Numbered from the stretch's first letter, positions 13,554-48,820 are shown. The stretch is DNA of 64,000 nt from Haliotis asinina (GCF_037392515.1 NC_090294.1:7393870-7457869), one strand, 5' to 3'. Notes: generated from the sequence alone by a model not told the origin. Numbers and translations are program-made.

Positions 13554-13626
13554 ATGTCGCGAGAACCTGACAAACTGTCTACCCAGAATCCTCTTCTAAC
13601 CAAATGGAAGCTGGAGCTCTCTACAG
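13554..13626 (+). CDS. TEP1: Tentative first coding exon of TEP1, encoding MSREPDKLSTQNPLLTKWKLELST. It ends in phase 1.
   Basis: ATG with A at -3. The GT at 13627 is a weak donor (GTTCGA). Phase 1 matches the candidate acceptor at 14184-14185. With this exon included, the total CDS is 7953 nt and divisible by 3. There is no homology support. Confidence 0.2.
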
Positions 13627-14185
13627 GTTCGAAATCATTCTGTGTGCTTGTAACACCAGCAATGTTTGCTGCAAAATATATTCTCACATGTAATGGAAGG
13701 GTGTTAAAGGTCCTGGTCATTTAGGATACATCAGGCATGAAAAATGCTGACAACTTAAGAACAGTAGAATATAACTAAACACAGGGTTCACTATCTTGAA
13801 GGGATGGTGTAAATCAGTTGAAACCTAAAGTGGTCTTTCTGTAAGTTTGACATCTCAGTTATCATATAACATAACAAAGCATGGTATAATGTGGCTTTTT
13901 GGCCTTGCAGGATCTGCATAATTAGAAACATTAGCAAATCTTTAATAAGTTGTCTTAAAAGTTATGAGGTATTATTATATGACAGTGTAAAATATGCATA
14001 GAATTTTGTTGAAATGGGTTATGTAGTGTCTGTTAGATACAGTAGAAAATCATAATATTGTGTAATGTTATGAGTTGTCCGAATTATGTTCCTAGCTTGT
14101 GTAGGTGGTGGTCTCCTCACCTGCATCTGTTGCCCATGACATTCCCATCACAGCAAGTGTTGTAATCATAGCCTGTTTGTTGAAG

Positions 14186-14817
14186 GTTTAAAAGGAGGAC
14201 TTGGCGGGTCAAGTCTACTCTCGACAACCAAGACTGCAGATGCAGGCCGTAAGCGGAAAGGAAATGATTCCTCCAATGTTGATAAAAAGAAGACAAAAGA
14301 CACATCGTTCTCTAACCAGAGTTCTCTGCTCAGCACAGAGCTGACCCAGAAATTGACGTTATCGTCCAGCTTGACTGGCAGCAGTTTACTGTCCGGCAGT
14401 AGCCTATTGTCTGGCGGACTGTTATCAAGTTCTTTACCAAACACACTGTTAGTGAAATCTTCAAAAACAAAAGATGACCATGATGAAAAATCGAGCAAAA
14501 GCTCGCAGGAAAAAGTCCAAAAGAAAGTGAAATCTACACGTGGTGATGAGCCTTCAAAGAAAAGGTCGATGGAGGTCAAGGACAAAGTTGGGAAGGCGTC
14601 CAAGTTGTCCAAGGTGGCCAAACTTCCCAAAGAGAAAAAGTCCAAGGAACCAGGATTCAACTACAAGGCATATGAGACCAGCTACCCAGATTACAACTTT
14701 GCTGGGATGTATGCTGGGGAGAGTTTTGAAGTGCCGAGTTTCATGCCACCAGACAAGGATGTTAGAGTCAGCAAACACCTTGTGGCAGCGCCACTCTGTG
14801 ATGTGAATGGCTTGAAG
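14186..14817 (+). CDS. TEP1: TEP1 N-terminal coding exon, a Ser/Leu/Lys-rich low-complexity region. The 5' boundary is uncertain; the frame is open from 14140 with no in-frame ATG before 14567.
   Basis: Long open frame ending at donor GTGAGT (GT at 14818). It encodes ...KEKKSKEPGFNYKAYETSYPDYNFAGMYAGESFEVPSFMPPDKDVRVSKHLVAAPLCDVNGLK. It joins in phase 0 to the TROVE exons. Confidence 0.55.
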
Positions 14818-15377
14818 GTGAGTGATTGGTCAGCGTCATTAGATCGGACCATTGATGCAGAGCATATGACAAATAGTTCTTATAACATTGATAAAAGCTC
14901 ATGAAAATTTATCAGGCATACTGGTTTTAGTAGTCTAGCTAGGTTATATTTGAACAATTGCTTTTAACTGTTTGTTTTTTTTCCATCCATCAACACATCG
15001 ACTTGTCATGAATGACATAATAATATTGAGATGTGATGCACCAAAAATTTCACTGTGTGTACTAAAGCTACTGTTCCAAAGCCTATGTCTTTTAAAATTT
15101 CTTTCATTTAAAAACAGTAAAACTGAGCTTATAATCCATTCTCATTCAAGTTGTTTAAACATTATAATCAGCCTGCTTGTGATAACTGACTTGTACAACA
15201 CCTGAGTGTTTTGAATATTTTGTTAGTTCACATTCAAAAAGGCATGCAAAGGAATGAGACAAGTGAGATTTTCATCTTGCAGAAGCTGTTTATGTTTCCT
15301 GCTCTCTTCCATTTCTGTCAATATGTTTGCTGATAATTATTATGATAATAGTTACCTTTCCTATATATTCTTTCCAG

Positions 15378-15512
15378 CATGCATTCATCAATGCTGTGAG
15401 TTCATCCCTTATCTGCGCCCCCAACTTCAAGGATTCCAAGGCTAAAGCCAGAATTGACCTCATTGCCATGTCAGAAAAGGTCACGACCTATGACCCAGAG
15501 TTTCTTCTGAAG
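15378..15512 (+). CDS. TEP1: TEP1 exon (start of TROVE domain)
   Basis: Acceptor tttccag, donor GTAAGC, phase 0/0. It encodes HAFINAVSS...IAMSEKVTTYDPEFLLK, which aligns with human LAAIFEICRELALLEPEFILK. Confidence 0.75.
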
Positions 15513-15665
15513 GTAAGCATAAGGTGGCAAAACATTAACTTGAACAAATTGAATATCCTGTTAACTGAAAACAACTATGATCGTAATGATGCACCCACAA
15601 TGTTGACCTTCACTGTATTATTAGTGACTTTAACTTATTAATGTTTTGGGTTATTTTTTGGTCAG

Positions 15666-15827
15666 GTTGCCTTACACACAAGAAAAGGCTTGAACATCCG
15701 AACTACAGCCAACTTTTTGCTGGCTCTGGCTGCAAATGTAAAGCTGTGTCGACCATACATGAGAAAATATTTCTCAGCTGCCATCAACCTGCCCTCTGAC
15801 TGGATTGAAGTAGCAGAAATATACCAG
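15666..15827 (+). CDS. TEP1: TEP1 exon, TROVE
   Basis: Encodes VALHTRKGLNIRTTANFLLALAANVKLCRPYMRKYFSAAINLPSDWIEVAEIYQ. This matches human ASLYARQQLNVRNVANNILAIAAFLPACRPHLRRYFCAIVQLPSDWIQVAELYQ. Donor GTGAGA. Confidence 0.9.
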
Positions 15828-15974
15828 GTGAGAATGATTTTGTGTTCAGGTGAAAGGTGCAAGATGGCAGGTTCAAGAGTTTCTTCCTTTAGTCTGTGGT
15901 TAACTTGATGTAAGAAAACTGATATCAGTGTATGACAGTTTGATAAAGAGGACTATTAAATATTTCAGAATTTA

Positions 15975-16135
15975 TGAGTGAGTTTAGTTTTACAGCACAC
16001 TTAGCAGTATTCCAGCTATATGGCCGTGGTCTGTAAATAATAGGGTCTAGATTACACAATCCAGTGATCAACAGCATGAGCACCAATCTGTGCAAATGGG
16101 AACCAATGACATGTCAACCGACGTCCCGTCAGTCC
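15975..16135 (-). mobile_element. SINE body/tail type, minus, in TEP1 intron 3
   Basis: Reads gagtttagttttacagcacac...cagtattccagctatatggccgtggtctgtaaataatagggtctag...caatccagtgatcaacagcatgagcac. Confidence 0.6.
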
Positions 16136-16323
16136 CGAATTTATAAGTAGAGACAATAGTGTATACATCACACCAACATACAAAATATACAAGGACCTCA
16201 GAACAATTATTACAGGCAGCAGTGTGGTTGTTTTTTTTAAAAAAAAAGTTATTTGTCATGTTTGATGATTTTTGACTGAAGAGGTTATTATTTTATATCT
16301 TGCTATGCTGTTATTAATTTCAG

Positions 16324-16420
16324 GCATTCCATGATGATAGCCTGACATTTGGGGCACTCCCAGCTGCCTTGAGACGAGTTATGGTGGCAAAGTTTCCCGA
16401 TTTTGACAAATACCAACTTG
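16324..16420 (+). CDS. TEP1: TEP1 exon, TROVE
   Basis: Encodes AFHDDSLTFGALPAALRRVMVAKFPDFDKYQL, matching human LPACLRTAMTDKFAQFDEYQL. Donor GTAGGT. Ends in phase 1. Confidence 0.85.
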
Positions 16421-16679
16421 GTAGGTTTTATCATCAGTCATCCATTCTTGCATTCATATATGAATTACCAACTGGTTTGACACAGGTCATTTTGTCTGTG
16501 CAACATTTCAGTGCAGATTCTTGTTCTTATGTCTAGCACGAACGATACAAGAATCTGTACTGAAACATTATCAGTAAATGATATCTGTAAATGTGTACTA
16601 TAATTTAAGAATTCATTAAATGCTGAGTTAGAATTGAGTTTTCTCAGTTTCCTCAAAATAACACACGAGTCATTTGCAG

Positions 16680-16882
16680 CAAAATATAACAAAGATTCGT
16701 CCAAGAAGAAGAAGAAAAAGAAGGGAGGAGGAGATCAAGGTGGACGGGGTCGAGGGAGGGGAAGAGGCAGAGGAAGGGGTGGAGTGATGCAAGTGGGAAT
16801 GAAGGGTCGGAAGCGCACCTTGTTTGATAGTGACAGCGAGGAATCTGACAGTGATGATGAAAGCAAGAAGCCACGGAGACAA
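16680..16882 (+). CDS. TEP1: TEP1 exon with a poly-K, RG-repeat and acidic Ser/Asp insert
   Basis: Encodes AKYNKDSSKKKKKKKGGGDQGGRGRGRGRGRGRGG...DSDSEESDSDDESKKPRRQ. AKYN matches human AKYNPRK. Donor GTGAGT. Confidence 0.8.
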
Positions 16883-17537
16883 GTGAGTTGATTAGATGAA
16901 CACATGATGTTAATGTTACCATGGTAACTCATAATATTGGAAATTTTAACTATATATTGTACGTTTATGTACTTATCACACGATTTTTACTTCTCTCTCT
17001 TGCTTTGAAGCCAAGTGGAACAAATGAGAACTTCCCCTCTAGACCTCTCTTGTCCATACGCCCGTGTTCTCAAGGCTGCTCTACTTATAGGACAGTCCCT
17101 AGTCCCATGATGACTGTGCAGCATGCTCCCCTATCTACCCACGTGACTACCTCAGAGTGATAATTTTCTTCTCGGAGCCACTACCACAATCTTAGTAGCA
17201 ATTAGGCTGGGTTGGCATACATTGCATGAGATGGGATAAGTATATAAATATACATTTCGGGGGACCCATGAAGATCTTGGTTATGATTGGTCAATCCATG
17301 TTTGTTGTAAGAGGCAGCTATGGGGAAATATTTATGTAGTTTCAATTTTCAGTTGAGGTATATTTTGTACTTGACGATCAGGGCCTAGATTTTCAAAGCT
17401 CACTTGGCCCTAAGATTGTGTAAGTGCATACATTAACATTAGCTTACACTATCTTATCGCTAAGAGACCTTAAAAAATCTAGTCCCAAGTTAGTTGAACA
17501 AGAGAGAAACAAACCAGTTGCTGATGTTTTGTTTCAG

Positions 17538-17674
17538 CTGAGTGATGTCAATTACGATGAGGACAGCGACACTGAGGAAGTTTTGGAACAGAAGACATTT
17601 TCCTTGAAACAGCTCATCAGAAAGTTGCACATCAAGGAGCCTGTAGAGCATGTCATGTGTCTCATCGGCAAAAA
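17538..17674 (+). CDS. TEP1: TEP1 exon
   Basis: Encodes LSDVNYDEDSDTEEVLEQKTFSLKQLIRKLHIKEPVEHVMCLIGK, matching human RFTLKKLVQRLHIHKPAQHVQALLG. Donor GTGAGT. Ends in phase 2. Confidence 0.85.
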
Positions 17675-17689
17675 GTGAGTGTTTATAGC

Positions 17690-18420
17690 AGGGAAATACA
17701 GATGCTGACTTGTGAGGTATTGATAGTAGGGTATTTAGCAGTAATAATAGGGTATTTAAGCATTAATGGGGTATGCTGGATGAGCTGTGCCAGGTTAGTG
17801 GCCCAGTGAGCTTGAGATACCAGAATCAAGCCCACCGGTGACACCTTGGAGTCAGCTGTGTGTGCAGACTTGTCAGTGATGTCACCAGCCCTAGTGTACA
17901 GTACACCACCCCTAGTGTACAGTACACAACCCTGTGCTGTTAATAGACTCCATGAATCCATTTTTGAATGACTAGATGGTGGTGAGTACCTGAAGCCACG
18001 TAGCTGCGGGCACAGCAATGAGCAGTAAAACGTGGAAAACGTCATGCTCCACCCAGCTGGGAAGGGGTACCTCAGTTGTAGGATCTTCAGGGAGTTAAGG
18101 TTGATGATACCATGAGCCATTTTAGATTGACACCCAATGATTGAGGGAAAAACGAAATGACCTTAAGCAGTTGGGGAGGATACTCTGGGTATTTTAGCAT
18201 TCATATTGGGGGTATGTATAGCATTGATAGCAGGGTATTTTTTAGCATTGATTGTAGGGTATTTAAGTATATTTTTATCATTGCTGATGGAATATTGTTA
18301 GTGAGGTATTGTATGTGAAATTTGCTGTGGTTTGTAAGATTTAGTGTTGTAAGTGTTAATGAAAGGTGTTGTGCATGTTGAGAGCAGGTTATTGTAAATG
18401 TTGATAACAGGACAATCATG
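17690..18420. repeat. Degenerate minisatellite of about 20 bp units (gtattgatagYagggtatttaRca) in TEP1 intron 6, in two blocks: 17690-17770 and 18190-18420
   Basis: Repeated units gggtatttagca, gggtatttaagca and gcattgatagcagggtatt. Confidence 0.6.
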
Positions 18421-18593
18421 TTGTTTGCCTGAGGATGCTAGTCAGTATTGGGGACTTGGTCGAGTGTTTGTCACTGTCACCCAAAGGAAAGTAAGATTCG
18501 TAAAGGAAGAAATGGTGTAGCGTTTTTCTCAATGGTCCCAGTTATTTTACAGTATGTAACCATTTAGGCTGAGAACATACCGTCTGTGTGTAG

Positions 18594-18751
18594 GTACCCA
18601 TCCACACTAGAAGAATTTTATGCAAGTCGTCTTCCTGGGACTTGGGAGGAAGAAAAATGTGGCAAGAGGATGAAGCTCCCTGTACCCGAGACCTGGGAAA
18701 CACAGGTGTCTATGAAGGGCAACAAGGCGGCTGTCTGGGAGGAGTTAATTG
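18594..18751 (+). CDS. TEP1: TEP1 exon
   Basis: Encodes KYPSTLEEFYASRLPGTWEEEKCGKRMKLPVPETWETQVSMKGNKAAVWEELI. This matches human YPSNLQLFSRSRLPGPWDSSRAGKRMKLSRPETWERELSLRGNKASVWEELI. The donor GTTGGT is weak. Confidence 0.75.
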
Positions 18752-19082
18752 GTTGGTTTATACTTGACTGACAGAAAAGTGGTGTATAAACAAGGACTGT
18801 TTAAGAGTGTCACTTAATTGAATATCAGTTCATCTACTGATAAATACTTTGTTACATTTTATAACCTGCTATAACTGTATTAAATGTAACTTTTTAATGC
18901 AATTTATATCTAATTTGTGTACATGTGAAGGTACATGCGAGTGTTTGTAATTTCCTTATAGCTAACAAATACATGTAAACGATGTTTGTTCAGGTTAAAA
19001 TTCCTTAGAGATTTTCATTTTGATATGGGTTTTATGATGGTTTGAGAAATAATTTATTTAATATGTTTTATATTTTCCCTAG

Positions 19083-19192
19083 ATCACAGGAAGCTGCCAT
19101 TCATGGCGATGTTACGGAACTTGAGAAACCTGATCAAAGCGGGGATCTCTCCAAAACACCACAACAGCATCCTGTCTAGGCTGACCAATGAG
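19083..19192 (+). CDS. TEP1: TEP1 exon
   Basis: Encodes DHRKLPFMAMLRNLRNLIKAGISPKHHNSILSRLTNE, matching human GKLPFMAMLRNLCNLLRVGISSRHHELILQRLQ. Donor GTGTGT. Confidence 0.85.
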
Positions 19193-19249
19193 GTGTGTGA
19201 TACACAGATACACAGACACATTACATTCTAAGTGTTTTGTGTGGGTTCT

Positions 19250-19510
19250 ATTGATATCCAGACCCATGAAGATCCGCTTAGAATTGATCTTCCTAAACCT
19301 GTGCTTGTTGTAAGAAGCAACTAACGAGATCGGGTGGTCAGACTTGCTGAGTTAGTTGACACATGTCATCATATTCAATTTGCATAGATTGATACTAATG
19401 CTGTTGATCACTGGATTGTCTGATCCAGCATGTTGTTTACAGACTACTGCCATATAGCTGGAATATAGCAAGGTGTAGGCATTAAACTAAACTCCCTCCC
19501 TCACACAGTT
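19250..19510 (+). mobile_element. SINE body/tail type, plus, in TEP1 intron 8
   Basis: Reads ...gatcgggtggtcagacttgctgagttagttgacacatgtcatc...gttgatcactggattgtctgatccag...tttacagactactgccatatagctggaatatagc. Confidence 0.6.
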
Positions 19511-19805
19511 AGAGTTCACTACATAACATGAAGACTTCATGCTACTTTTTTTCAAATTCATGCAAGGGTGTGTTTTTTTATGAATTCTTTTATTGATTAT
19601 AGTTAATAATGATTCTGTCGAAGCATATGTATATATAAATTATTTATTTACTCCCCAACTTTAAGTAGCTCCAACAGTTTGCATTTTCACCTTGACAAGA
19701 AAACATTTTGTCTGCCCATTATAACTTTAACATTTCTTTAGTTGTCATATGTAATTGACCAGCTAAGACTGTGTACAATGGATTGTCAAAATTCCTATTT
19801 TACAG

Positions 19806-19896
19806 CGTCAAGTCATCAACAGCAAACAGTTCCCGTTCCGATTCTTCTCAGCGTATGAAGTGCTCACACAGTTGGAGAAGGATTATGAGCAAAACC
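19806..19896 (+). CDS. TEP1: TEP1 exon
   Basis: Encodes RQVINSKQFPFRFFSAYEVLTQLEKDYEQN, matching human IHSRQFPFRFLNAHDAIDALEAQL. Donor GTAAGT. Ends in phase 1. Confidence 0.85.
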
Positions 19897-20274
19897 GTAA
19901 GTCTATCCACATCCCTCCACTGTCTGTAACACATGCTGATCTTGTGATATTACAATCAGTATGTCCTTCATGTGTATTTTTACAATCAGACACTGAACCA
20001 CAACAGACCAGTCATTGTCATTGCAAATACTGCTATGCACAATTCATGGAATAGATTCTGAAGTGGGAAATATTTATCTAGACTTCCTCGGAGACTAACA
20101 TTTGTCCATAAGACTGGAGAATTATATTTGCAATTTGAATTAAATATGTTCAGGTTTGTCTGAATTTATGAAAGTGTGTACATTGAAATGGTCTAATTTT
20201 GAACAGTATCATGTGTTTCCAGTACTGAATAAGAAATAAATCACTGACCAGTCTTCTTGTATGACAGAAGCCTA

Positions 20275-20430
20275 TGATTGTGGGGTTGAAGCCTTGTAAG
20301 TTCCACAGGGTGGGCGATCACTGGATTTGGATAGTGGTTAAAGCATTCTCGCTCATCACTCCGACAACATGTGTTTGATTGCCCTCATCGGTACAATGCG
20401 TCAGACCCATTTCTGGTGTTCCCTTCCGTA
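20275..20430 (+). mobile_element. tRNA-derived SINE, head type, divergent, in TEP1 intron 9
   Basis: Reads gatagtggttaaagcattctcgctcatcact...gacccatttctggtgttccc. Confidence 0.5.
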
Positions 20431-20516
20431 AATGTATAAACATAAACTCATGCAGTCATTCTTAAGTTCTCAGCGCCAGAGCTGTGGTCAAATTATTTTA
20501 ATTCTATTTTTTTCAG

Positions 20517-20676
20517 AAAAAGACATCATTCACGAAGCTGAGAACAATGCTATGGCATCAGGAGTAACTCGTGGAGGTATCCGAGGTCGAGGTCGTGGAA
20601 GCAGAGGTCGGGGGGCTGCAGCAAAGGACAAATGGTGGTTGATCAGGAAAGAGAAAAAAAAGCAGCAAGGCACAAG
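20517..20676 (+). CDS. TEP1: TEP1 exon with a second RGG/RG cluster
   Basis: Encodes QKDIIHEAENNAMASGVTRGGIRGRGRGSRGRGAAAKDKWWLIRKEKKKQQGT. Acceptor tttttcag, donor GTCAGT. Ends in phase 2. Confidence 0.7.
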
Positions 20677-20756
20677 GTCAGTGGCAGGAAAACTGACATT
20701 GTTTAGACTTTATTTGTTTAGTGTAAGGGTGGGAGTGTCTCACTGAATCGGGAGGT

Positions 20757-20817
20757 TAACCCTACCCTACCCCATCCTACCCTACCTCACCCTACCCTAC
20801 CCTAACCTACCTCACTC
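20757..20817. repeat. Degenerate (CCCTAC)n/(CCTAC)n telomere-like microsatellite in TEP1 intron 10
   Basis: Reads ccctaccctaccccatcctaccctacctcaccctaccctaccctaacctacc. Confidence 0.8.
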
Positions 20818-20889
20818 AACACTTTTCCCACAGGTTGTATAAATATGTGTATAATATTGTTGTGGCATGGCATGGATATATAATTCACA

Positions 20890-21050
20890 CAAAAAAATGG
20901 TAATTGACAGAAAATAAGTAAATATATGCTAAGTGACAGAAAATGGGTAAATATATGGTAAGTGACCTAAAATAGGTAAATATGTGGTAAAATGATATAA
21001 AATAAGTAAATATATGGTAAATGGAAACTAAGTAAATATATTGCAAAATG
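20890..21050. repeat. Tandem repeat of about 22-25 bp units (aatRggtaaatatatggtaagtgac) in TEP1 intron 10
   Basis: Six or more units of gtaaatatatgg with variable flanks. Confidence 0.7.
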
Positions 21051-21097
21051 AAGCTAATAGCTGCAAACTCCTGTAATGCCTGCCATTGTGCCTGCAG

Positions 21098-21278
21098 TGA
21101 GGTTGCATATGACAAGAACCTGATAGTGCGGTACCGCAAGGCCCTGGACACAGCAGTCAAAATTGCCACGGTCTACAATGTTCAACCAATCAGAGGGCGG
21201 ACAATCATTTTCTGCGACATTGGCAGTGAGATGAAAATACCATGCACTGCAGCGAAAGGACTTGGCAAGCCGAGAATG
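21098..21278 (+). CDS. TEP1: TEP1 exon (vWA-like region)
   Basis: Encodes SEVAYDKNLIVRYRKALDTAVKIATVYNVQPIRGRTIIFCDIGSEMK...GKPRM. This matches human KYDGEMLNRYRQALETAVNLSVKHSLPLLPGRTVLVYLTD. Acceptor cctgcag, chosen by phase. Donor GTAAAT. Confidence 0.75.
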
Positions 21279-21429: not shown

Positions 21430-21588
21430 ATGGACGAGGTAGCTGTTCTGCTTGGTCTAATGTGTAAGCACTCATGTGAGGAGTGCATGTTGGTGGCCTA
21501 CAACGACACCCACTATGCAACCATCGACATCGCTAAGGGCACCATCCTGGACAACATGGCCACTGTACTTAATTCCCCCATATCTGAG
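21430..21588 (+). CDS. TEP1: TEP1 exon
   Basis: Encodes MDEVAVLLGLMCKHSCEECMLVAYNDTHYATIDIAKGTILDNMATVLNSPISE, matching human NYALLLIGMMITRAEQVDVVLCGGDTLKTAVLKAEEGILKTAIKLQ. Donor GTAGGT. Confidence 0.8.
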
Positions 21589-22518
21589 GTAGGTCCTGCT
21601 TTCTGTTCTGACAGTAAGACTGGTATCAACATGACCAAGCTTGTGTGATGTAGATGAACATCGGTCTGGACACTTTTCTCAAATACTGTCACGATAAATC
21701 AATATTTTTGTATTTGAATATTTTGTCATTTACGCTCCCTTCCTAAATACTACCCAGGCATGAAAATATTGAATAAAAAACAATCTCCTGTTACGAAATG
21801 CATAAGATTATTTGGGTTTAACACTCAGTGTAACCTAGCATACCACCAACAAATGCCTTACTTTTGACATGTTGACTGCTACCACGAGTATACTCGTATC
21901 AATGTCTGCTCGAATTTACCACTATGATTTATCTCGTAGCTGCATCAGTGGTTTTCTAAAGTATGTATAGTGTGTTGGCAGAATAGGCACAAGAAGCAAT
22001 CGTTTCCAGGTGGTAGCAAAGAAAGCCCAGACATGTGTGTTTCTTGTGCCTATTGTGCCAACACGTTTTGTGGAGGGTGTTAAAATACACTCCATCCGTG
22101 CGTCTGTGTGTTCGTGCACATTTGTCTTTTTTAGGGAAACCGTTCCCTATTTCTTCACCAAACTTGGCACACAGATAGATCTGGTGGTGAACTGATGCCT
22201 CGTGGTAGGTTTGGAATTCTGACTAAACTATTTTCAACACTCTCCTTCTGCTTTGCCAAAACGTTTGACACCGTCATAATGAGTAGACATATTCATGAAG
22301 AGTATTTTGCCATTGCAGGGAATATTGATGAGTTTGTCTTCTTGCTAAAATACCACTGATGTAGCTATGAGATAACTCTTGGTGGCAAATTCGACTAGAA
22401 TTGATACTTCGAGTATACTGGTAGTGGCAGTCAGTGTGGTACGTTCCCTTAGGTTCAACACAGTACCCTGTGTTAATCTGTGTGTACTGTCCATGTGAGA
22501 GTGTTGTGTATTCATCAG

Positions 22519-22593
22519 ATGAGCGGGCGACAACTGCTGACAAAGGGACTGCCATTCCAAGTGCTTGTGGAAGTGCTCCGAGACAGAATTCAG
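22519..22593 (+). CDS. TEP1: TEP1 exon
   Basis: Encodes MSGRQLLTKGLPFQVLVEVLRDRIQ, matching human FGKYLLSLAGQRVP. Acceptor ttcatcag, donor GTAAGT. Confidence 0.65.
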
Positions 22594-22625
22594 GTAAGTG
22601 CTGGAATGTTGCAGAGTGTCGATCG

Positions 22626-22647
22626 ATCAATCAATCAATCAATCAAG
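22626..22647. repeat. (CAAT)n microsatellite
   Basis: Reads atcaatcaatcaatcaatcaa. Confidence 0.9.
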
Positions 22648-22729
22648 CAATGTGAGTGCAAATCATTTTGTAGCCATATAGAATTACTCTTATCATGCAC
22701 CTAAATATCATGTGGTAAATCTCTTCTAG

Positions 22730-22875
22730 GTGGACAATCTCATTATTCTGAGTGGTGGAATTGACCCCACTTCGGACAAAGGTAAAGTAATGTCTGATTT
22801 CCTGAAGATGTATCGCCAGGTGGTCAATGGGAACCTGCTGTACTGCAGTGTATCATTTGCTGGGAGAAACACTGG
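22730..22875 (+). CDS. TEP1: TEP1 exon
   Basis: Encodes VDNLIILSGGIDPTSDKGKVMSDFLKMYRQVVNGNLLYCSVSFAGRNT, matching human VDRVILLGQSMDDGMINVAKQLYWQRVNSKCLFVGILL. Donor GTGAGA. Ends in phase 2. An alternative donor lies at 22850. Confidence 0.7.
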
Positions 22876-29062: not shown

Positions 29063-29064
29063 AA

Positions 29065-35814: not shown

Positions 35815-35844
35815 GTGAGAGAATGTATCACAAACTGATGTAGT

Positions 35845-39425: not shown

Positions 39426-39481
39426 TAGTGTTAATGTCAATGTGCAAATGTTTGACGAAACTTGTATATATCTATGTTCAG

Positions 39482-39639: not shown

Positions 39640-40156
39640 GTAAACTGGTTCATTTTCTGTATACATGCCTTGACCAAGTTAATTCAGAACATAATTGGAT
39701 GAAATTTATTAAAGGTGATTGTGGAAACATGTGAAAGCTTGTGAATGTCTTGTCTCAGATTTAGTGCCTGATATTTGGAGTGGGGATTCATCTAAGGGTT
39801 GCCAGCAGTGGAGGTCCTGTAAAAGAAGACAGCAGTTCTGCAGAAAGTTTGGCGATGACTTGTTTTGTTTTTCAAAGATCATGTTTTAGATTTTAGCTGT
39901 GGAGAGAGTGACTAAATAGTCTTGTCTTGTCTTGCTCTTTGTGAGGACATTAAAAATGGTTTAACACTAATTGGAGAACTGCACTCAGTATTTCCTTGAA
40001 GAAGGTGAATGGTTTTATTACCACACCCTAGCATGCCTTCTGTTTTAACAAGTCATCATCCAAAAATCAAATCCAGCTTGTCAGGAATGAACCACTCAAA
40101 GAAATGTATGTACTGTAACTAGATTAGGTAATGGTGTATTGACGATGTATTTTCAG

Positions 40157-40256
40157 ACCATCCCCAATGGCTACTCTGAAGGGTCACACTGCCCCAGTGA
40201 CCAGCTGCTCCTTCAACTCAAACCAGACTAAACTGGCTACTGCCAGTCGAGATGCA
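40157..40256 (+). CDS. TEP1: TEP1 exon, WD40
   Basis: Encodes RPSPMATLKGHTAPVTSCSFNSNQTKLATASRDA, matching human ELRGHEGPVSCCSFSTDGGSLATGGRDRS. Donor GTAAGT. Confidence 0.9.
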
Positions 40257-40974
40257 GTAAGTAGTAACGCATCAGTACTCAAGGGGACCTTATTTATTTT
40301 ATCCTCCAAAACTGGAGATACCAGGTGGCTGAGATAAGTATTTTACCTCCCAGAAAGCATTTCTTCACTGAAATAGAATCCTTTGAATTAATTCAAATTC
40401 TGTCAGAGGTATTTTGGCCTTTGTAAATATTTGCCCTTACCACTGGACAACCAAGCAGAACGAGGGGAACAGATGCATTCCAGAACTAAGCAAACTGGCA
40501 GTTACTAAACAAAGGGCTAAGAGAGTTAGCTAAGGGCCATAGCCAAACTTGGATCACATAACTTTGGATGAAAGTTTGTGAACAAATTTGATATGAACTA
40601 AATATTCTTTCTGAAGAATGCAATATGCGTTCATCCTGCTTACGTTTTTTCACTAACAGAATGATGATGGAGTCTCTGAACAGCACTTAGAACCTGATGA
40701 AGGAGTAAGGACTTGCTCCAAAATGTTGTGTCCATCACAATAGTGGACATCCATAAAAGTCTTGCCTTTCAAATCATAGTAGTCAATAAACGTGTTAGTG
40801 TCCATGCACAATGACGAGAAATGCACTTAAGAAAGTTTGTTATTGTAGGCTTGACGCAAGAGATGATCCTTGAGGAGAGCCTTGAACTTAAGACAGAAAG
40901 GAAATGTTTTGAGCTCAAATGTAAGATCTTTGCCCATGCCATACTGACCTGACAATATGATTTTCTTTCTTCAG

Positions 40975-41100
40975 TCTGTGATGATATGGGACATGTTCCA
41001 AGCTTTGGTGGACACTGATGCCACGGCAGAGCGGACTCTTCATGCTTGCCACAATGACTGGATCAACTCCTGCAGGTGGTCCAACATCGGTGACTTCCTG
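40975..41100 (+). CDS. TEP1: TEP1 exon, WD40
   Basis: Encodes SVMIWDMFQALVDTDATAERTLHACHNDWINSCRWSNIGDFL, matching human LLCWDVRTPKTPVLIHSFPACHRDWVTGCAWTKDNLL. Donor GTATGA. Confidence 0.9.
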
Positions 41101-41405
41101 GTATGACAGTCTCAACTTACAAAACTAGACTTAAGCATTTAGAACTTGCACTGGAGCAACCTGAAACTGCCAGTTGCAACCTCTTATTTATACCAACTTA
41201 CACATATTGCATGTCAGTATTTTCAGAATGTCAAATCTGTTAATTTATCCAGAAATAATCATGTTGATTATTTATGCTTTTAAGAAAAACATTACAAAAC
41301 TGATAAGATATTTATGTAAAGAGAAAGTTAGTGTTGTATTAATTCTTAGCAATTATTTAACACTTTCATCATATCCAACTTTGTGATGACTTCCTTGTTC
41401 CCTAG

Positions 41406-41513
41406 GTAACAGGCTCCAATGATTTCAACCTGAAGGTGTGGGATATAAAGACCGGAACAGAGAAGAAGAAAATGACTGGGCACATGTCTGCAGTCAATTC
41501 GGTGGCATACCAG
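41406..41513 (+). CDS. TEP1: TEP1 exon, WD40
   Basis: Encodes VTGSNDFNLKVWDIKTGTEKKKMTGHMSAVNSVAYQ, matching human ISCSSDGSVGLWDPESGQRLGQFLGHQSAVSAVAAV. Donor GTAAAA. Confidence 0.9.
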
Positions 41514-41634
41514 GTAAAAGACTCATCTTCTTAGAAAAAATATTAAGCATTTGTATATGAATCATTTAAGTACAGGTGTATCATGTCCAGTGGGGATATG
41601 TCATGTGTTTAAGAGTGGATGTTTCATGTTTCAG

Positions 41635-41785
41635 TATGGATGTATTGTGTCAGCGTCCAGTGATGGCCATGTAAAGGTGTGGTCACAGAAGGGAACAGAG
41701 ATCACCACCCTGCTTGGACACACACAGAGGGTCAACAGCTGTGACATCGTGGTCAAGGTCAAACAAGGGTCATCTTTGGAAGATG
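41635..41785 (+). CDS. TEP1: TEP1 exon, WD40
   Basis: Encodes YGCIVSASSDGHVKVWSQKGTEITTLLGHTQRVNSCDIVVKVKQGSSLED, matching human VVSVSRDGTLKVWDHQGVELTSIPAHSGPISHCA. Donor GTAAGT. Ends in phase 1. Confidence 0.9.
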
Positions 41786-42156
41786 GTAAGTATTTTACAC
41801 CAACTGTGTGCTTATGTTCAAGCCACTGACTGCCTCACAACTCAGTATGCAACCTAATGCTGTAATGTCATTAAAATATTCCCAAAGTGCAATAAAAAAC
41901 AAAATGATAATTTTTGTCATCTGGTTAAAAGTAATGTTAAGGCTCAAGAAAAAAACCCTTGCCATTCTCCTTGTCAGACTAAATAAACACACTATATCAT
42001 GGTTGCTTATATGATATGTACATACAGTTAAGGTGAATCAATTCTTTTGTGACAACATATAAACATGACCACTCTAAATGGCTACAGTGTCACATTATCA
42101 TACTTTACACGACCCTTATTGGTGATATGTTTGTGACTTCTCCTTGCATCTTTCAG

Positions 42157-42302
42157 CCAATGTGGACGAGACAATGGACTGGTCAGCTCCAGAGATTGAT
42201 TCCCCAGACAAGAAGTCTGGAAGATTGGACATCAAGATGCAGGATGTCATCGTGGCCACATGTTCTGATGATGGTCTTCTGAGACTGTGGAAACCACTCC
42301 AG
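42157..42302 (+). CDS. TEP1: TEP1 exon, WD40
   Basis: Encodes ANVDETMDWSAPEIDSPDKKSGRLDIKMQDVIVATCSDDGLLRLWKPLQ, matching human LLVVTVGLDGATRLWHPLL. Donor GTAGGC. Confidence 0.85.
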
Positions 42303-43022
42303 GTAGGCACAGCAGTGTTGTAGACTTCCATTTAAAGAAGCCACAGTTTACCTCAAATTCCTCAATATGTGAATTGGCCCATCAGTATTGTCAAATTATG
42401 GCTAGTCAGGTTATTATGGAAAGAGAAATTATTAAAGACTTGGCCTCATATTGTTTCTTTGAAGGACATTCAGAACAGGAATGCACAAGAATAGCCTTCT
42501 TGAAAGAAAGAAAGATTTCTGGATGTCAGCTTGAAAGTGAACACAATGTTTTGTAGTCTATGCCTGCTCATTCATCACCTGATGAAGGAGCAAGCATACA
42601 CTCCGAAACATTGTGTTATTATGTCGTACTCCTTCAAAATTCTGCGTACACCTCCTATTGCAATATGAGGTGTAAGTACACCCATACCCCAGAAAGTTAT
42701 CTGATTTAAGGTATTTTGTATCCATGTCATTTCTAAAAAATTTGGATATGTTTGATCTTTGATGTGGATATGTTTGATATTTGATCTGGATATATTTGAA
42801 AATCAGACATGGAATCTTACTCTCCTATTTATATTTCCCAGTGTATTTTTTCAGTTCAATAGAACACATGTTGCACAAATAAGATAGGGGTGCTCTCTCC
42901 ATTGTGTTTACATACTGAAGTGAATAATTAGAAATCATGAACATAGGAGGGGGGACATCAGGGTTTTTTTAAGTAAAAACTAAGTTTCATTAAAAATATA
43001 TCCCTAAAATTGCTCCTTCCAG

Positions 43023-43234
43023 GCAAATGAGTTGGCATCTCTGACAGGGCACTCTGACCGTGTGTTGTCAGTAGCAACAGACCAGTATGGCAATGTCTGC
43101 AGCTGCTCATTAGACAAATCAGTGAGACTTTGGACCCCACAGCTCAGTGAAGAACGTGTCATTGGTCGCCATAATGCTGACATCACCTTCTGTGTCGCCT
43201 CTCCAGATAGTGCTGCTGTTCTCACAGGAAGCCG
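43023..43234 (+). CDS. TEP1: TEP1 exon, WD40
   Basis: Encodes ANELASLTGHSDRVLSVATDQYGNVCSCSLDKSVRLWTPQL...ADITFCVASPDSAAVLTGS, matching human LLGHSGPVRAAAVSETSGLMLTASEDGSVRLWQVP...AVTAVAWAPDGSMAVSGN. Donor GTATGT. Confidence 0.9.
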
Positions 43235-43921
43235 GTATGTGATGAAAGATTGTAAATGCCATAACGATTTTATTTCTTGTTTTACAGATGTTTGTCCTCA
43301 GAAAACCTGAAGGCATGGGAATGTTTTTATGAAATATCTGCAGTCAAAGTAATATTCCTTTTTAATACTAAAAGTACTTTACTTTGGGCAATTTATGAAG
43401 TATGGTTGGGGCACAAATCAATGAAAAAATATTTTTTGGGTAATTTTACATATTTAGCCAGTAAAAACATAAGTAAATTATTTTCTTATCAGGGAAAAAT
43501 AACTTTTATCATTTCTTTCTTTTTCTTGAAAAAACACTATCATCACGATCCATAAAATAAGAAATAAAATTGGCCTGTCTAGCCTGATGTTGAAAAACGA
43601 AACAGAAAATAGTATTCCCACATGACAAGGTTTGTCATCTTAATGCATCATTTGATGTTTACAAGTACATTGGAAGGCAGCTTGAGCAGCATTGCAAGGG
43701 AATACATGTATATACTTTTATGTTTAAATTGTTTTAAAGTCTGTCTAATCAAAACAAATGTGGGATACGCTAGTGGTATGTATGTGAATTCATAGGTCTT
43801 TATTCACTGTAAACATGTTGTCCTACAAATTATTTCTGAGATCTGAAGGACAGTTGTATTTATTGAAGATTTCATACAGATGCTGTGATATGTGTTTGTG
43901 TAACCTTATTTTCTAACCTAG

Positions 43922-43991
43922 GGATGGTATCGTGAAGATATGGACCATGGACCCGGTCACCAACGAGAGAGCATGTACCTATAGCTTCCAG
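43922..43991 (+). CDS. TEP1: TEP1 exon, WD40
   Basis: Encodes RDGIVKIWTMDPVTNERACTYSFQ, matching human AGELILWQEAKAVATAQ. Acceptor ttctaacctag, donor GTAACA. Confidence 0.8.
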
Positions 43992-44194
43992 GTAACACGT
44001 CCTGATGAGTTATCTCCCCTTAGTATATTCCTGGGACCTGATTGTATACACTTAATTTTGGATATAAATTTGTTTGGTTTTATGTTTTAGTGAACTTAAA
44101 TTAGTAAGCCTTACATAAACTAAAAAAAAATTGTTTTTCATGATCTCCTGCAGCTTTGAGAAACATGATATCACCCAGGAATGACATGATGTAT

Positions 44195-44345
44195 TGAAGG
44201 GCCTCGTATCCCAATTGCATAGATCAATGCTCATGCTGTTGTTCACTGGATTGTCTGGTCCAGACTCAAGTTTTAGCAGACCGCTGCCACATAGCTGGAA
44301 TATTGCTGAGTGCAATGTAAAACTAAACTCACTCTCTCAATCCTG
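44195..44345 (+). mobile_element. SINE body/tail type, plus, in TEP1 intron 48
   Basis: Reads gatcaatgctcatgctgttgttcactggattgtctggtccagactcaagttttagcagaccgctgccacatagctggaatattgctgagtgcaatgtaaaactaaactcactc. Confidence 0.65.
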
Positions 44346-44635
44346 ATATCTCAAAAGTATGGATCTTATATCTGTACCTATATGTCAAGCATAAAGATTA
44401 GATTGATTAAAATCAGATATGTTATTTTGCACAGGGAATGAACAAGGAAACTTCATGATTTCAAAACTTGTTTATTCACGTTATTTATCCAATCAGATAA
44501 TTCATTAATTCATTAATTCTCCAGTATCACATAATGTTGTCATCTGTCATACAATTTTCCATTTCTTTCTTATAGGTTTTGAAAGAATAGGCACAAATGT
44601 TTTGTCAGATGTGTAGTATATTATCTTTTTTTCAG

Positions 44636-44763
44636 GCCCATGAAAAATCAGTGAATGCTGCCTGTTTCGTGAACCGACAGGGTGGCAAGTTTGCCACAGG
44701 TTCTGATGACACCACTATCATCGTATGGGACATCATTAAAAGAAGAGATACCTTCCTAGTCAA
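44636..44763 (+). CDS. TEP1: TEP1 exon, WD40
   Basis: Encodes AHEKSVNAACFVNRQGGKFATGSDDTTIIVWDIIKRRDTFLV. Human has GHIGALIWSSAHTFFVLSADEKISEWQVKL. Donor GTAAGC. Confidence 0.8.
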
Positions 44764-45408
44764 GTAAGCCATGTTTATAATGATCAGACTAAACAGAAGG
44801 ATATGCGAGAATGGAAACGAATGACTTCAACTTCAACTCACATAGGAGTCAAAAATTAATGTCTGTTTTAGTTAAAATCAAATCAGTTTTCATCCTACTT
44901 CACTGACTATGTGTTTACTCAGACAAGTTTAGTTTGTAAATAGGCAAATAATACATTTTTTGTTTTGTTTTGGGTGGTGGTTGAAATGAAAGAGTTTTAC
45001 ATAAGCAAATTTCAAATTTATGTGATGACAATATATGGATGAACAACTTCTTTATTTCTATGAGAGGTTTCGGTGTAGGTTCTAACACCATTATCAAGCA
45101 AGTGTTGAACCCACCATTCCAATTACTGCATGTTTTCTCCAACTCATGAGTCAAAACTAACTCTTAACGAACGATGACAATATATGGATGAACAACTTCT
45201 TTATTTCTATGAGAGCGACATTTCGGTGTAGGTTCTAACGCCATTATCAAGCAAGTGTTAAATCCTACACCGAAACGTTGTTCTTGTAGCAGTAAAGAAG
45301 TCCTTCATCCATATATTGTCATCATTCCTTACTCCTCCAACTTCTAAATGTCTCTCAAAGAAGTCAAAACTTTTCGTTTAATATGAGAGTTCCATCTGTC
45401 ACTTTCAG

Positions 45409-45564
45409 GAAAGGAAAAGTGTTCAGCGTCATGACTCCTGTGACATCCCTGGCATGGAATGACAAGTACCCATCCAAGTCTGGGCTTACATTTTTCTCTG
45501 CAGAATGGAATGGCACCATCAACGTGTGGAACACAGACTATGGCACACCTGTTAATACAATTAG
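45409..45564 (+). CDS. TEP1: TEP1 exon
   Basis: Encodes KKGKVFSVMTPVTSLAWNDKYPSKSGLTFFSAEWNGTINVWNTDYGTPVNTI. Human has RKGSAPGNLSL...LTSLDWAPDG. The donor GTGCAG is weak. Confidence 0.65.
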
Positions 45565-45828
45565 GTGCAGTAACATTTTCTTGTCGAGAATTTTCTGGTT
45601 GTAAATGGAACAAACATATATCCCAAAATCTAGTAATGAAATTCTCTCTTCACAGAGAAAAATCCATCACTATTATTTGTAAAAGAATTGTTATTCACTG
45701 TTGATTAGATGCAACACCAGATCCATGCTGTTGTTAGGTTTTGCTCCAAGACAATGCTTAGTCTCCCATGCTGCAGACTCCTTGACAAAGTGACAAGATC
45801 TTACAATTTCTTTACAATTTACTTCCAG

Positions 45829-45952
45829 GAACCCAGCCACAGGTGGCTTCTACAACAGTTGGTCAACCAGACTGACCTTCTCCGACCAGGAGCTTCTCAC
45901 AGCCGGCACAGACAGCAAGGTCGTTATCATGGATGTTGGACCAGTACTGCAA
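45829..45952 (+). CDS. TEP1: TEP1 exon
   Basis: Encodes RNPATGGFYNSWSTRLTFSDQELLTAGTDSKVVIMDVGPVLQ, a WD-like block. Acceptor acttccag, donor GTGAGT. Frame chosen by phase. Confidence 0.7.
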
Positions 45953-46744
45953 GTGAGTTCTCAGCTTCAGAATACTTTAGAGGATATTTGTTCCAGAACT
46001 TTGTGAACTCCATGTAAAAGAAAAGGCATTACAAGTCATTTTGGTCACTTTGTGGACTTGGAACAAGGTAGGAGGTTTGAATGGACAACCAATGAAGTAT
46101 TGTCATGTGTTGTTACAACTCTTGCTTCTGTTTGCTTCTCATTCATTCTAAGACACTGATCTGTAATCTCATTTGCATACTCAAAAATATACTTTCAGTA
46201 ATTTTCTCTCGTTCAGTGATTGTGTATAATTACTGAAAATTACAGAGTGAAATGGGCATTAGGCATGATCGCTGAAAATTTCAGTGATTATATAATCCCA
46301 GAGTATACTTGTTTCCCGTATCATGTACAAATGGGCCTCCCTATATTATCAGGTCAGTATTTCTCTTTCATTATGTGTTTCTCGGAACTTTCTCCACATT
46401 TTCCTGGCCAGTACTGCCACCATTGTATAGTGGATAGAGGGCGTTCCCAGGGAACAGAAGGTAACTGGTTCTGTGGTATTTATTGTTGCCCTGACTCATT
46501 TTGGGCGTTGAGAGACTAGGACAAGACTGTTTGATTGGCCATTCATGCTAAACTGCAGCAAGGTATTTTGTTGGGCTTGCAATGTAGTCCAACATTAATT
46601 TGGACAATGTAAGCATAAGCACACATAAATGCTCACAGACATACGGGTAAATTAACTTTGTTCCTATGGCAGGTTTTGTGTTGAGTGTTTTAACCTCTCT
46701 TTAAGTAAAAGATGTAGCCATATTTGACCTGTATCTTGGGGTAG

Positions 46745-46905
46745 AGGGTAGTGTAGTGGTTAAAGCATTCACTCGTCATGCAGAAGACCTGGGCTCAATT
46801 CCCCACATGGGTACAATGTGTGAAGCGCATTTCTGGTGTCCCCCGCCGTGATATTGCTGGAATATTGCTAAAAGTAGTCTATAACTAAACTCAATCCTCT
46901 CTACA
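46745..46905 (+). mobile_element. tRNA-derived SINE, head type, near full length, plus, in TEP1 intron 51
   Basis: Reads gggtagtgtagtggttaaagcattcactcgtcatgcagaagacctgggctcaattccccacatgggtacaatgtgtgaagcgcatttctggtgtcccccgccgtgatattgctggaatattgctaaaagtagtctataactaaactcaatcc. Confidence 0.7.
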
Positions 46906-47011
46906 ATTCTGAATTAAAGCAAAATATGAATGCATCACTAACAGAAGATGCTCTTTTGTTTGGTAGGTTTTTTCATCACCATGGAAACTGATATCTTTTC
47001 TTTGTTCACAG

Positions 47012-47218
47012 GTCAAGTACAGTAGTCCAGCAGTGACCAAAATGATGATGTTTGTGGACAGCTCCGAGCTGGACAAACATATCCCTCCTCACAAACGTAC
47101 CAAGACATGGGTGTTAGATGTCATGCAATGGGGGACAATTGTGTACTGCGTTGACTCCAAGGGTCAGATAACTGTGGCTAACAGAAACCAAGCACCCGAC
47201 ACCTGGAAAACAGTGAAG
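47012..47218 (+). CDS. TEP1: TEP1 exon
   Basis: Encodes VKYSSPAVTKMMMFVDSSELDKHIPPHKRTKTWVLDVMQWGTIVYCVDSKGQITVANRNQAPDTWKTVK. Acceptor tttgttcacag, donor GTATTG. Phase 0/0. Confidence 0.7.
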
Positions 47219-47710
47219 GTATTGAAAAATAAAATCATTGCTTTCTTTTCAAATGTAAAATGTTTTGGGGGATATCTGTCCGAGGATAACTGATAAAAGA
47301 CTAATGTGGGGCGAGATAGGAGAGAGTTTGATGGTCCACAGTCAAGTAAGTCCTCTCTCAGTGGCGAGGGAATATTGAAATACAAGATCTTCTCTACGTA
47401 TAATCTAACTGTTTGGGATTTTACAGGGGGCTTGGTTATTTATTTTCAGTCGGTTCTAGATTGTACTGGACAAATAATCATTTGGGTTCAGGTTAAGTCT
47501 AATTTTAGTACAATGTACAGGACATATTGGAAGTCCAGAAAAAAAAATTCATTGAAAGGTTTTTGAGTATTTTATAAATTCAAGGATGTAAGTTGAGCAG
47601 CATTGGTGTGTCAGGCCCATGTCAGTGACTGTTGCTATGGTTGTTGCTGTCTAAATGTGTGAAACCCATTGACATGGAAATAATAATTTGTTATGGGATG
47701 TTTGTTCTAG

Positions 47711-47812
47711 ATTCATGCAGAGGCCATCACCAGCATCATGGCTGTGGCAGGATGTATTTTCACAGCGTCCGCCGACCACACAGTCAAAGTGTGGAGGGAA
47801 GATCTGACTCAG
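47711..47812 (+). CDS. TEP1: TEP1 exon, C-terminal WD40
   Basis: Encodes IHAEAITSIMAVAGCIFTASADHTVKVWREDLTQ, matching human IHSGSVTALHVLPELLVTASKDRDVKLWERPSMQ. Donor GTAAGG. Confidence 0.9.
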
Positions 47813-48685
47813 GTAAGGACGTAACCAATCTGTTTATGGCTGTTGTTAATACATCCCAGTTTTAAGGGGGATTCTCATAAGAGATGCAAACCTTTATGAT
47901 TTTATCGTAGACACTACAAGTTTTAGCCTCAAACTACGCCAATACAACTGCACCAGAAATTCTACAAAATAAGAAAATTTTGACATATAGACAAAAACGT
48001 ATATTTTTGTTGATTAAATGTGAGTTCACTTACTTGCCATTCATCAAGTTTGACATGTGTGAACTGGAATCATTGCAAGTTACAAATGTAATTTTAGCAA
48101 AATTGTCTATCAGAAATCTGAAGCTGATTTCATCCATTTGATCCATTTACTGAGTATCGGCCAAATATTACTGAGTTAACCACCTGACTGTTCCTTCCAT
48201 TCAATTATACAAAATCAGTATGTGAAATTAAAACTTTGCACTTGACTAGTGCCATACTATCTTTCTCAGAATCCATCATGATTTTAAGTAATTTGTCAAC
48301 TAATTTATGGTCAAACTACTAATTTTCTTCCTTGAAACTACTGTTTTCAACACTTTGAGGTTGGCACCTCTGGTCATTCCAATAACCTGAGGATGTTAAT
48401 TTTGTATAGAATGACAGTTTAAGGTATTCTTAGTCAACAAATCTGCAGTCCCAGAAGGGTGATCAGCTGAGGACCCGGGTTCTCCAGGGTTTATTTTTTA
48501 TTTTTTTTTTGGCAAATACAAGAGGCAATGGGTTGCTACGTAAAATTTCTACATCATTCATATTGATATAGTTTTTTTCTAAACATATGTCAGATATGAT
48601 AGGAATAATGTAACATGACAAGTGAACAATGTTACTTCTCACAAGAATATCTTGTGAAGCAAAGCATTATGTTTTCTGTCCTCAG

Positions 48686-48820
48686 ATTGGTCAGTTCTTC
48701 TGTCCAGCACCAGTGACCAGCATGACACTTGCTGGAACAGTCAGCAGGAGCCCTGTGTGTGTCCCTCTGATGTGTGGTGACCAACTGGGCAACGTCCACC
48801 TCCTTACATGGCGGCAGTGA
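48686..48820 (+). CDS. TEP1: TEP1 terminal coding exon, stop TGA at 48818-48820
   Basis: Encodes IGQFFCPAPVTSMTLAGTVSRSPVCVPLMCGDQLGNVHLLTWRQ*, matching the human C-terminus LLGLFRCEGSVSCLEPWLGANSTLQLAVGDVQGNVYFLNWE*. Confidence 0.9.
   Translation: MGQFFCPAPVTSMTLAGTVSRSPVCVPLMCGDQLGNVHLLTWRQ

Follow-up and report, generated by a model that had tools for sequence, protein, structure and literature searches.

Gene structure, domain architecture and NADase residues of a predicted TEP1 orthologue in the abalone Haliotis asinina

Introduction

The closest described counterpart of the gene treated here is human TEP1 (telomerase protein component 1), whose product, a large RNA-binding and NAD-cleaving protein associated with vaults, runs in the order TROVE, vWA-like, DUF4062/TeTIR, NACHT, APAF1-like helical and WD40, and the arrangement TROVE-vWA-TeTIR-NACHT-WD40 has been described as defining TEP1 (bioRxiv 10.64898/2026.05.01.722283; 10.64898/2026.09.21.753143). 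The DUF4062 domain of TEP1 is a TIR-like NADase; in human TEP1, the full-length protein and the domain on its own both cleave NAD+ and NADP+ into ADP-ribose(-phosphate) and nicotinamide, an activity that depends on E1008, takes place inside reconstituted vaults and goes up with protein concentration (Osinski et al., bioRxiv 10.64898/2026.05.01.722283). The domain was named TeTIR by Hornebeck et al., and NADase activity was found for the TEP1 domains of human, mouse, zebrafish, sponge and Dictyostelium, with F902, S905, R908, R914, R942, W943, C959, R976 and E1008 defined by mutagenesis (bioRxiv 10.64898/2026.09.21.753143). A further residue, R954, is seen in the crystal structure of the TIR-like domain of human TEP1 (PDB 11gz). 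Here we analyse a stretch of 64,000 nucleotides (nt) of the abalone Haliotis asinina (GCF_037392515.1, NC_090294.1:7393870-7457869), hereafter the window, in which positions 13554-48820 of the + strand are read as a TEP1 orthologue.

Parts of this architecture recur in two other groups of proteins. NWD1, NWD2, NPHP3 and TTC41 share DUF4062/TeTIR directly before NACHT and continue with a helical domain and repeats at the C-terminus, but they are without TROVE and vWA, whereas the abalone protein has both of these together with the TEP1 propeller matches. Conversely, Ro60 and Tetrahymena p80 share the TROVE and vWA RNA-binding module with abalone TEP1, yet are only ~540-700 amino acids (aa) long and carry no TIR-like, NACHT or WD40 part.

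The Gene Model

The window has ~39% G+C and contains many short open stretches amid stop-rich sequence, which is as expected for an intron-rich metazoan gene. An initial annotation, read from the raw sequence, had proposed 54-55 coding exons over 13554-48820, with a coding sequence of 7953 nt, chained splice phases and neither frameshift nor premature stop. The gene model was rebuilt without that exon list, by means of our own spliced protein-to-genome aligner, which is of the GeneWise style (BLOSUM62, affine gaps, GT-AG introns in three phases, explicit split codons) and was supplied with eight TEP1 references, including Solemya P0001, Saccostrea P0009, P0003, Lingula P0013, Batillaria P0103, P0121 and Elysia P0122. 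The rebuilt coding sequence runs from the ATG at 13554 to the TGA at 48818-48820 and comprises 7953 nt in 55 exons, encoding 2650 aa, with a single terminal stop, no frameshift and consistent phases from exon to exon; the independent model thus arrives at the upper of the two exon numbers and, with the acceptor at 35665, at the same length. The exons measure 70-632 nt (median 135), and the 54 introns, all of them GT-AG, 121-1059 nt (median 500). The human TEP1 gene has roughly 55 exons, compared with 55 coding exons in the abalone.

We read 13554-48820 as a single, intact TEP1 orthologue of H. asinina, with a probability of about 0.93. TEP1 being a known gene, this is an ordinary orthologue, and one that is apparently functional. 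The H. asinina genome is already annotated in RefSeq, and the annotation probably includes this TEP1 gene.

The individual references overlap along the gene. The Solemya alignment places Met1 at ATG 13554 and defines exons 1-21, while that of Saccostrea reproduces exons 2-15 and nearly exon 16, its first exon being 2 nt short. P0003 reproduces exons 5-26 with the exception of exon 11, Lingula gives exons 14-28 exactly, with exons 13 and 29 clipped at the alignment ends, and the fragmentary Batillaria model agrees where its exons are present, apart from slight shifts at a few ends. Towards the C-terminus, P0121 agrees base for base with exons 17-54, and with exon 55 as far as the local alignment reaches, and Elysia gives exons 29-52 and 54 exactly, with exons 28, 53 and 55 off only at alignment ends or by 6 nt. 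P0121 (1872 aa) is encoded on a Logan contig of 5671 nt (run SRR30826392) and is considered transcript-derived because this contig carries one uninterrupted open reading frame. Wherever mollusc and lophotrochozoan TEP1 predictions overlap the abalone gene, the exon boundaries are shared. A first ab initio chaining of exons had given 61 exons and 9288 nt, of which alignment to homologues identified six exons as spurious and seven as over-extended.

Homologues

Two queries were compared with a collection of 5.8 billion proteins, one assembled from the most evident open stretches, TROVE through NACHT, the other made of the C-terminal 1113 aa. The first query returned TEP1 proteins as its top matches (E = 1e-266), among them Solemya velum with 59% identity and Saccostrea with 78% over the part covered (18% of the query); Lingula, Branchiostoma and many vertebrates were found lower in the list, and TROVE-only proteins were clearly weaker matches than TEP1. 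With the second query (E = 0), P0121 and Elysia marginata TEP1, at 47% and 45% identity respectively, each covered 100%. In both searches the best named matches were all 'telomerase protein component 1'. Over long alignments the identity of mollusc and lophotrochozoan TEP1 is 45-59%, while mammalian TEP1 fragments reach only 35-37%, close to the ~35% that had been anticipated for the family. When TEP1 proteins were compared with the window by tblastn, 873 of 873 high-scoring segment pairs fell on the + strand, colinear over 14656-47815, and the spliced alignments are likewise colinear from Met1 through the last WD repeat.

The mollusc, brachiopod and amphioxus TEP1 entries returned by these searches are fragments of 735-1310 aa, some of them without internal exons, whereas the abalone model is full length. 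The collection gave no exact entry for the 2650-aa protein, and neither list includes a match of >1938 aa, a Haliotis TEP1 fragment or a full-length vertebrate TEP1; the length ceiling and the missing vertebrate proteins suggest that long proteins are not searchable in that collection. The initial annotation had stated that TEP1 is rarely annotated correctly in invertebrates; the fragments are in line with this, but full-length models may merely be missing from the collection. The analysis provides a full-length mollusc TEP1, of which the collection yielded fragments only, and its main value lies in validation, as a 55-exon, 2650-aa gene model read from raw sequence proved correct.

Domain Architecture of the Predicted Protein

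In one reading frame, Pfam recovers TROVE, vWA-like DUF5920, DUF4062, NACHT, winged helix, APAF1-like helical and WD40 matches in this order (Table 1), and all of these but the winged helix stand in the order given above for the human protein. The initial annotation had suggested a spliced protein-to-genome alignment and a profile search as checks, and both bear it out, as the former returned TROVE, NACHT and WD40 in order and in one frame, and the latter found TROVE, DUF4062, NACHT and WD40 in the predicted succession. The peptides it had quoted are all present on the + strand, namely AANVKLCRPYMRKYFSAAINLPSDWIEVAEIYQ at 15729-15827, a 14-letter peptide of the DUF4062 block at 24125-24166 with DLRWGVTEE at 24239-24265, the Walker A motif GKPGSGKT, and LGNVHLLTWRQ at 48785-48817, which is followed directly by TGA. 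Its assignment to TEP1, rather than to a related family, is supported by the TEP1-named best matches together with PF25047 and PF25048, two TEP1-specific propeller families that both match. By these Pfam and motif results, every testable structural feature that defines TEP1 is present.

The NACHT region is also matched by AAA_22, AAA_16 and nSTAND1. Exons 34-55 encode 21 WD40-like repeats, about one per exon, by a count made by eye on the per-exon peptides, the last of them ending in the LGNVHLLTWRQ peptide; human TEP1 has 21 WD40 repeats. At the other end of the protein, the N-terminus aligns from Met1 with the Solemya sequence MSFKQERLSLESSLLSKWSL, and the counterpart of aa 1-235 is of low complexity in other mollusc TEP1 proteins as well. 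Two RG/RGG-rich insertions, GGRGRGRGRGRGRGG and RGGIRGRGRGSRGRG, lie in TROVE loops beside an acidic Ser/Asp stretch and are encoded by exons 6 (16680-16882) and 11 (20517-20676). In the alignment they are common to Solemya and Saccostrea, and the second is also found in amphioxus, whereas mammal, shark, scorpion and acoel TEP1 are without them.

Conservation of the NADase Site

The abalone DUF4062 domain aligns with the crystal chain of human TEP1 (11gz_A, E = 1.8e-60), without gaps over the functional residues. Ten residues are identical, F926, S929, R932, R938, R966, W967, R978, C983, R1000 and E1032, which correspond in the same order to human F902, S905, R908, R914, R942, W943, R954, C959, R976 and E1008, and R966-W967-G matches the RWG loop. 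Every NADase residue shown to matter in the human protein is therefore kept in the abalone, so that the newly described active site of TEP1 is preserved residue for residue in a gastropod. The gene opens no new question, and its topical aspect is confined to the conservation of the NADase site in a mollusc; it is a reasonable candidate for asking whether vault-linked hydrolysis of NAD+ goes back to the ancestor of the bilaterians.

Table 1. Positions of the predicted TEP1 exons, domains, motifs and weak donors, and of interspersed repeat copies, counted from the first nucleotide of the window (aa, amino acids).
Feature	Position	Strand	Evidence or remark
Exons 1-5	13554-13626, 14186-14817, 15378-15512, 15666-15827, 16324-16420	+	spliced alignment
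Exons 6-10	16680-16882, 17538-17674, 18594-18751, 19083-19192, 19806-19896	+	spliced alignment
Exons 11-15	20517-20676, 21098-21278, 21430-21588, 22519-22593, 22730-22875	+	spliced alignment
Exons 16-20	23312-23383, 23542-23706, 24106-24282, 24700-24942, 25234-25347	+	spliced alignment
Exons 21-25	25770-25890, 26334-26516, 27069-27244, 28010-28157, 28624-28800	+	spliced alignment
Exons 26-30	29227-29319, 30214-30346, 30803-30980, 31214-31323, 31514-31599	+	spliced alignment
Exons 31-35	32103-32217, 32925-33033, 33751-33910, 34260-34355, 34970-35094	+	spliced alignment
Exons 36-40	35665-35814, 36071-36176, 36787-36906, 37418-37516, 38023-38170	+	spliced alignment
Exons 41-45	38657-38763, 39482-39639, 40157-40256, 40975-41100, 41406-41513	+	spliced alignment
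Exons 46-50	41635-41785, 42157-42302, 43023-43234, 43922-43991, 44636-44763	+	spliced alignment
Exons 51-55	45409-45564, 45829-45952, 47012-47218, 47711-47812, 48686-48820	+	spliced alignment
N-terminal Ser/Leu/Lys-rich low-complexity region	13554-14817, exons 1-2, aa 1-235	+	starts MSREPDKLSTQNPLLTKWKL
TROVE	15378-21197, exons 3-12, aa 235-686	+	PF05731, E = 1.2e-105, 354.7 bits, profile 20-442/442
vWA-like DUF5920	21430-23611, exons 13-17, aa ~714-887	+	PF19334, 36.4 bits, cutoff 27
DUF4062/TeTIR, TIR-like NADase domain	24107-25878, exons 18-21, aa 920-1133	+	PF13271, 56.4 bits, aa ~924-1022
E1032 codon	24860-24862	+	matches catalytic glutamate E1008 of human TEP1
NACHT P-loop NTPase	26469-28758, exons 22-25, aa 1183-1351	+	PF05729, 27.9 bits, cutoff 26.7
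Walker A GKPGSGKT	26484-26507, aa 1188	+	
Walker-B-like VVVMDGLD	28074-28097, aa 1279	+	
Winged helix HTH_NWD1 and APAF1-like helical	30253-33829, exons 27-33	+	
HTH_NWD1 winged helix	aa ~1410-1521		PF25469, 26.7 bits, cutoff 27
APAF1_C helical	aa ~1531-1666		PF17908, 43.9 bits, cutoff 22.8
WD40 region	34260-48817, exons 34-55, aa 1694-2650	+	PF00400, 358.8 bits, 10 stretches
Beta-prop_TEP1_2nd	5 stretches, best aa 2020-2218		PF25047, 266 bits, cutoff 89
Beta-prop_TEP1_C	aa 2574-2648, extreme C-terminus		PF25048, 130 bits, cutoff 32
Weak donor, exon 51, GTGCAG	45565-45570	+	score 0.49, weakest of 54
Weak donor, exon 8, GTTGGT	18752-18757	+	score 1.59, second weakest of 54
Weak donor, exon 1, GTTCGA	13627	+	score 3.90, seventh weakest of 54
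SINE-like repeat copies	8145-8361, 15962-16119, 19299-19503, 30519-30639, 33383-33514, 35889-35968, 39221-39419, 44204-44349, 53195-53247, 3200-3351, 7929-8094		
Second repeat family, copies	2488-2583, 3820-3915, 9677-9818, 29525-29667, 46736-46896, 52485-52627, 28389-28528, 20332-20429		

Uncertain Junctions and Alternative Readings

Several points weigh against the reading of the locus as an intact, functional TEP1 gene. The exact junctions and the expression of the gene are predictions, and the function of the abalone protein, with its putative vault association, RNA binding and NADase activity, is assigned entirely by homology. At the level of domains, the NACHT match is marginal, lying just 1.2 bits over the Pfam cutoff, the winged-helix match falls 0.3 bits below its own, and the Pfam scan of aa 1-235 gave no match, the N-terminal repeat of vertebrate TEP1 (TEP1_N, PF05386) not being detected there; we read this repeat as a vertebrate elaboration that does not define the TEP1 family. 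At the level of splicing, donor strength was scored with a leave-one-out matrix derived from all 54 donors of the gene, which average 7.75 bits, and 36% of background GT sites score at least as high as the donor at 45565. The junction that uses this donor (45564/45829, exons 51/52) is picked by both references that cover it, yet the stretch is poorly conserved, and the junction between exons 10 and 11 (19896/20517) also lies in poorly conserved sequence, where P0003 prefers the acceptor 20562 over 20517. We consider 45564/45829 the least certain junction of the gene, with 19896/20517 next, and these two together with the start codon are the three spots at which the evidence for the model is weak. 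The initial annotation had singled out the donors at 18752, 45565 and 13627 as weak, and their ranks among the 54 (Table 1) agree with this far beyond chance. For the donor at 18752, the junction 18751/19083 (...WEELI joined to DHRKLPF, the sequence after the joint being DHRKLPFMAMLRNL) is fixed by ungapped alignment to at least five homologues.

The realistic uncertainty is that the locus is TEP1 but that the major mRNA departs from the model at its 5' end or at a small number of junctions, which we hold to be unlikely, though not far-fetched. Candidate departures are the acceptor 35641 in place of 35665, which would lengthen the coding sequence to 7977 nt (+8 aa), the acceptor 20562, a donor other than 45565, and an extra 5' coding exon spliced into 13540. 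The ab initio pass indeed took 35641 as well as an upstream ATG spliced to 13540, and the choice made by P0003 and the properties of the exon 51/52 junction described above point in the same direction. However, the acceptor 35665 is picked by both C-terminal references, P0121 and Elysia, and restores a normal WD40 spacing (WHVDDGHRIAVLKDH), Solemya and Saccostrea both take 20517, and the Solemya protein begins at the equivalent Met. None of these variants would change the domain content.

That two adjacent genes have been misjoined, a TROVE/vWA gene similar to Ro60 or p80 and a DUF4062-NACHT-WD40 gene similar to NWD proteins, is very improbable. Many database entries start or stop near the boundary (for example, the Saccostrea protein of 940 aa), TROVE-only proteins are 600-700 aa long, and the architecture, apart from TROVE, recurs in NWD1 and NWD2, but single proteins, namely those of Solemya, Lingula and Batillaria, P0003, P0004 and the transcript-derived P0121, span TROVE/vWA, DUF4062 and NACHT and align unbroken over exons 16-19. 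Moreover, intron 17/18 is just 399 nt long with matching phases, and both 2026 preprints cited above give the combined architecture as that of TEP1. We attach equally little credence to the idea that the copy is silent or was inactivated recently and just looks intact still, as an unprocessed pseudogene or a redundant paralogue might. In favour of this, expression of the locus is predicted only, several splice sites are weak, and interspersed repeats as well as a decoy of the exon-37 acceptor occur within introns. Against it, the Walker A motif is kept, as are all ten NADase residues, no second TEP1-like segment pair occurs elsewhere in the window, and without selection a frame of 7953 nt would not stay open over 55 exons and 54 canonical introns.

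Proposed Mode of Action

For the intact TEP1 orthologue, the most likely mode of action follows that proposed for the mammalian protein. The TROVE/vWA module would bind a small non-coding RNA (vault RNA) and anchor the protein in vault particles, the NACHT, helical and WD40 parts would work as a STAND switch, and oligomerisation would then switch on NAD+ hydrolysis. Here the conservation of the residues is observed in the abalone sequence, and the remaining steps are carried over from mammalian work. A scan of the whole window with Rfam at gathering thresholds detected no family and no vault RNA, a result that has no bearing on whether the protein binds vault RNA.

It is also conceivable, although we regard it as rather improbable, that abalone TEP1 is no passive passenger of the vault and instead acts as an RNA-sensing STAND switch in immunity or cell death, with TROVE/vWA as input and depletion of NAD+ by the fully conserved TIR-like domain as output. 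If so, the two RGG-box insertions may augment the sensor module in molluscs, and the protein may correspond in animals to the TNL receptors of plants and the DUF4062 defence proteins of bacteria.

Neighbouring Genes, Repeats and Composition

Upstream of TEP1, a nanos-like single-exon gene is located at 5888-6820 on the - strand (zf-nanos, E = 1e-22), and its 295-aa product, which begins MLLHPVLEP, is identical to H. asinina XP_067656543.1. This match assigns the window to the abalone and rejects a bivalve source, which the best homologues (Solemya, Saccostrea) had first suggested. Further upstream, the left end of the window cuts an open frame of 226 codons (2-679, + strand), which has no Pfam match and probably belongs to an upstream gene as its last large exon. 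Downstream, an orthologue of NHP2 (H/ACA ribonucleoprotein subunit 2) lies on the - strand, tail to tail with TEP1. Its exons were located at 58331-58404, 55180-55285 and 54552-54674, the N-terminal exon or exons lying outside these, and over 101 aa it shares 53% identity with human NHP2. SNU13 was considered for this L7Ae-family gene and rejected, as NHP2 is clearly the better fit and the top PDB matches of the L7Ae exon are NHP2. TEP1 and NHP2 are both telomerase-linked ribonucleoprotein components, and their proximity is probably a coincidence; as a weaker extension of the idea that TEP1 acts as an RNA-sensing switch, the tail-to-tail arrangement may reflect co-regulation of the two genes.

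At least two families of interspersed repeats populate the introns and flanks of TEP1 (Table 1). The first is SINE-like (SINE, short interspersed nuclear element), ~130-200 bp long, and is present in both orientations in >12 copies of 72-87% identity, mostly within TEP1 introns; when translated, it gives a recurring pseudo-peptide, '...SGPD...WNIAECGVKL'. The second, of ~95-150 bp and 70-85% identity, likewise occurs in both orientations.

Through a local duplication of 162 bp (35929-36089 and 36413-36574, 93% identity), intron 37 has acquired a decoy acceptor; the copied segment consists of the end of intron 36 with its acceptor, plus 19 nt from the start of exon 37. A duplicated exon 37 within intron 37 was considered and rejected, since the copy holds only the acceptor region and these 19 nt of the exon. 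The frame of exon 37 stays open through the whole of the 610-nt intron 37, and a 258-codon open frame at 36027-36800 was rejected as coding, as it represents exon 37 read through this intron and does not continue in the frame of exon 38.

With respect to composition, G exceeds C on the + strand over almost all of TEP1 (12000-50000), and the skew is negative at 52000-60000, the region of NHP2 on the - strand; this change of sign fits a transcription-associated strand asymmetry. A (GA)n/(GAGAGA) microsatellite, which translates as ERERERER, is found at 12150-12260, which is ~1.3 kb before the start codon of TEP1.

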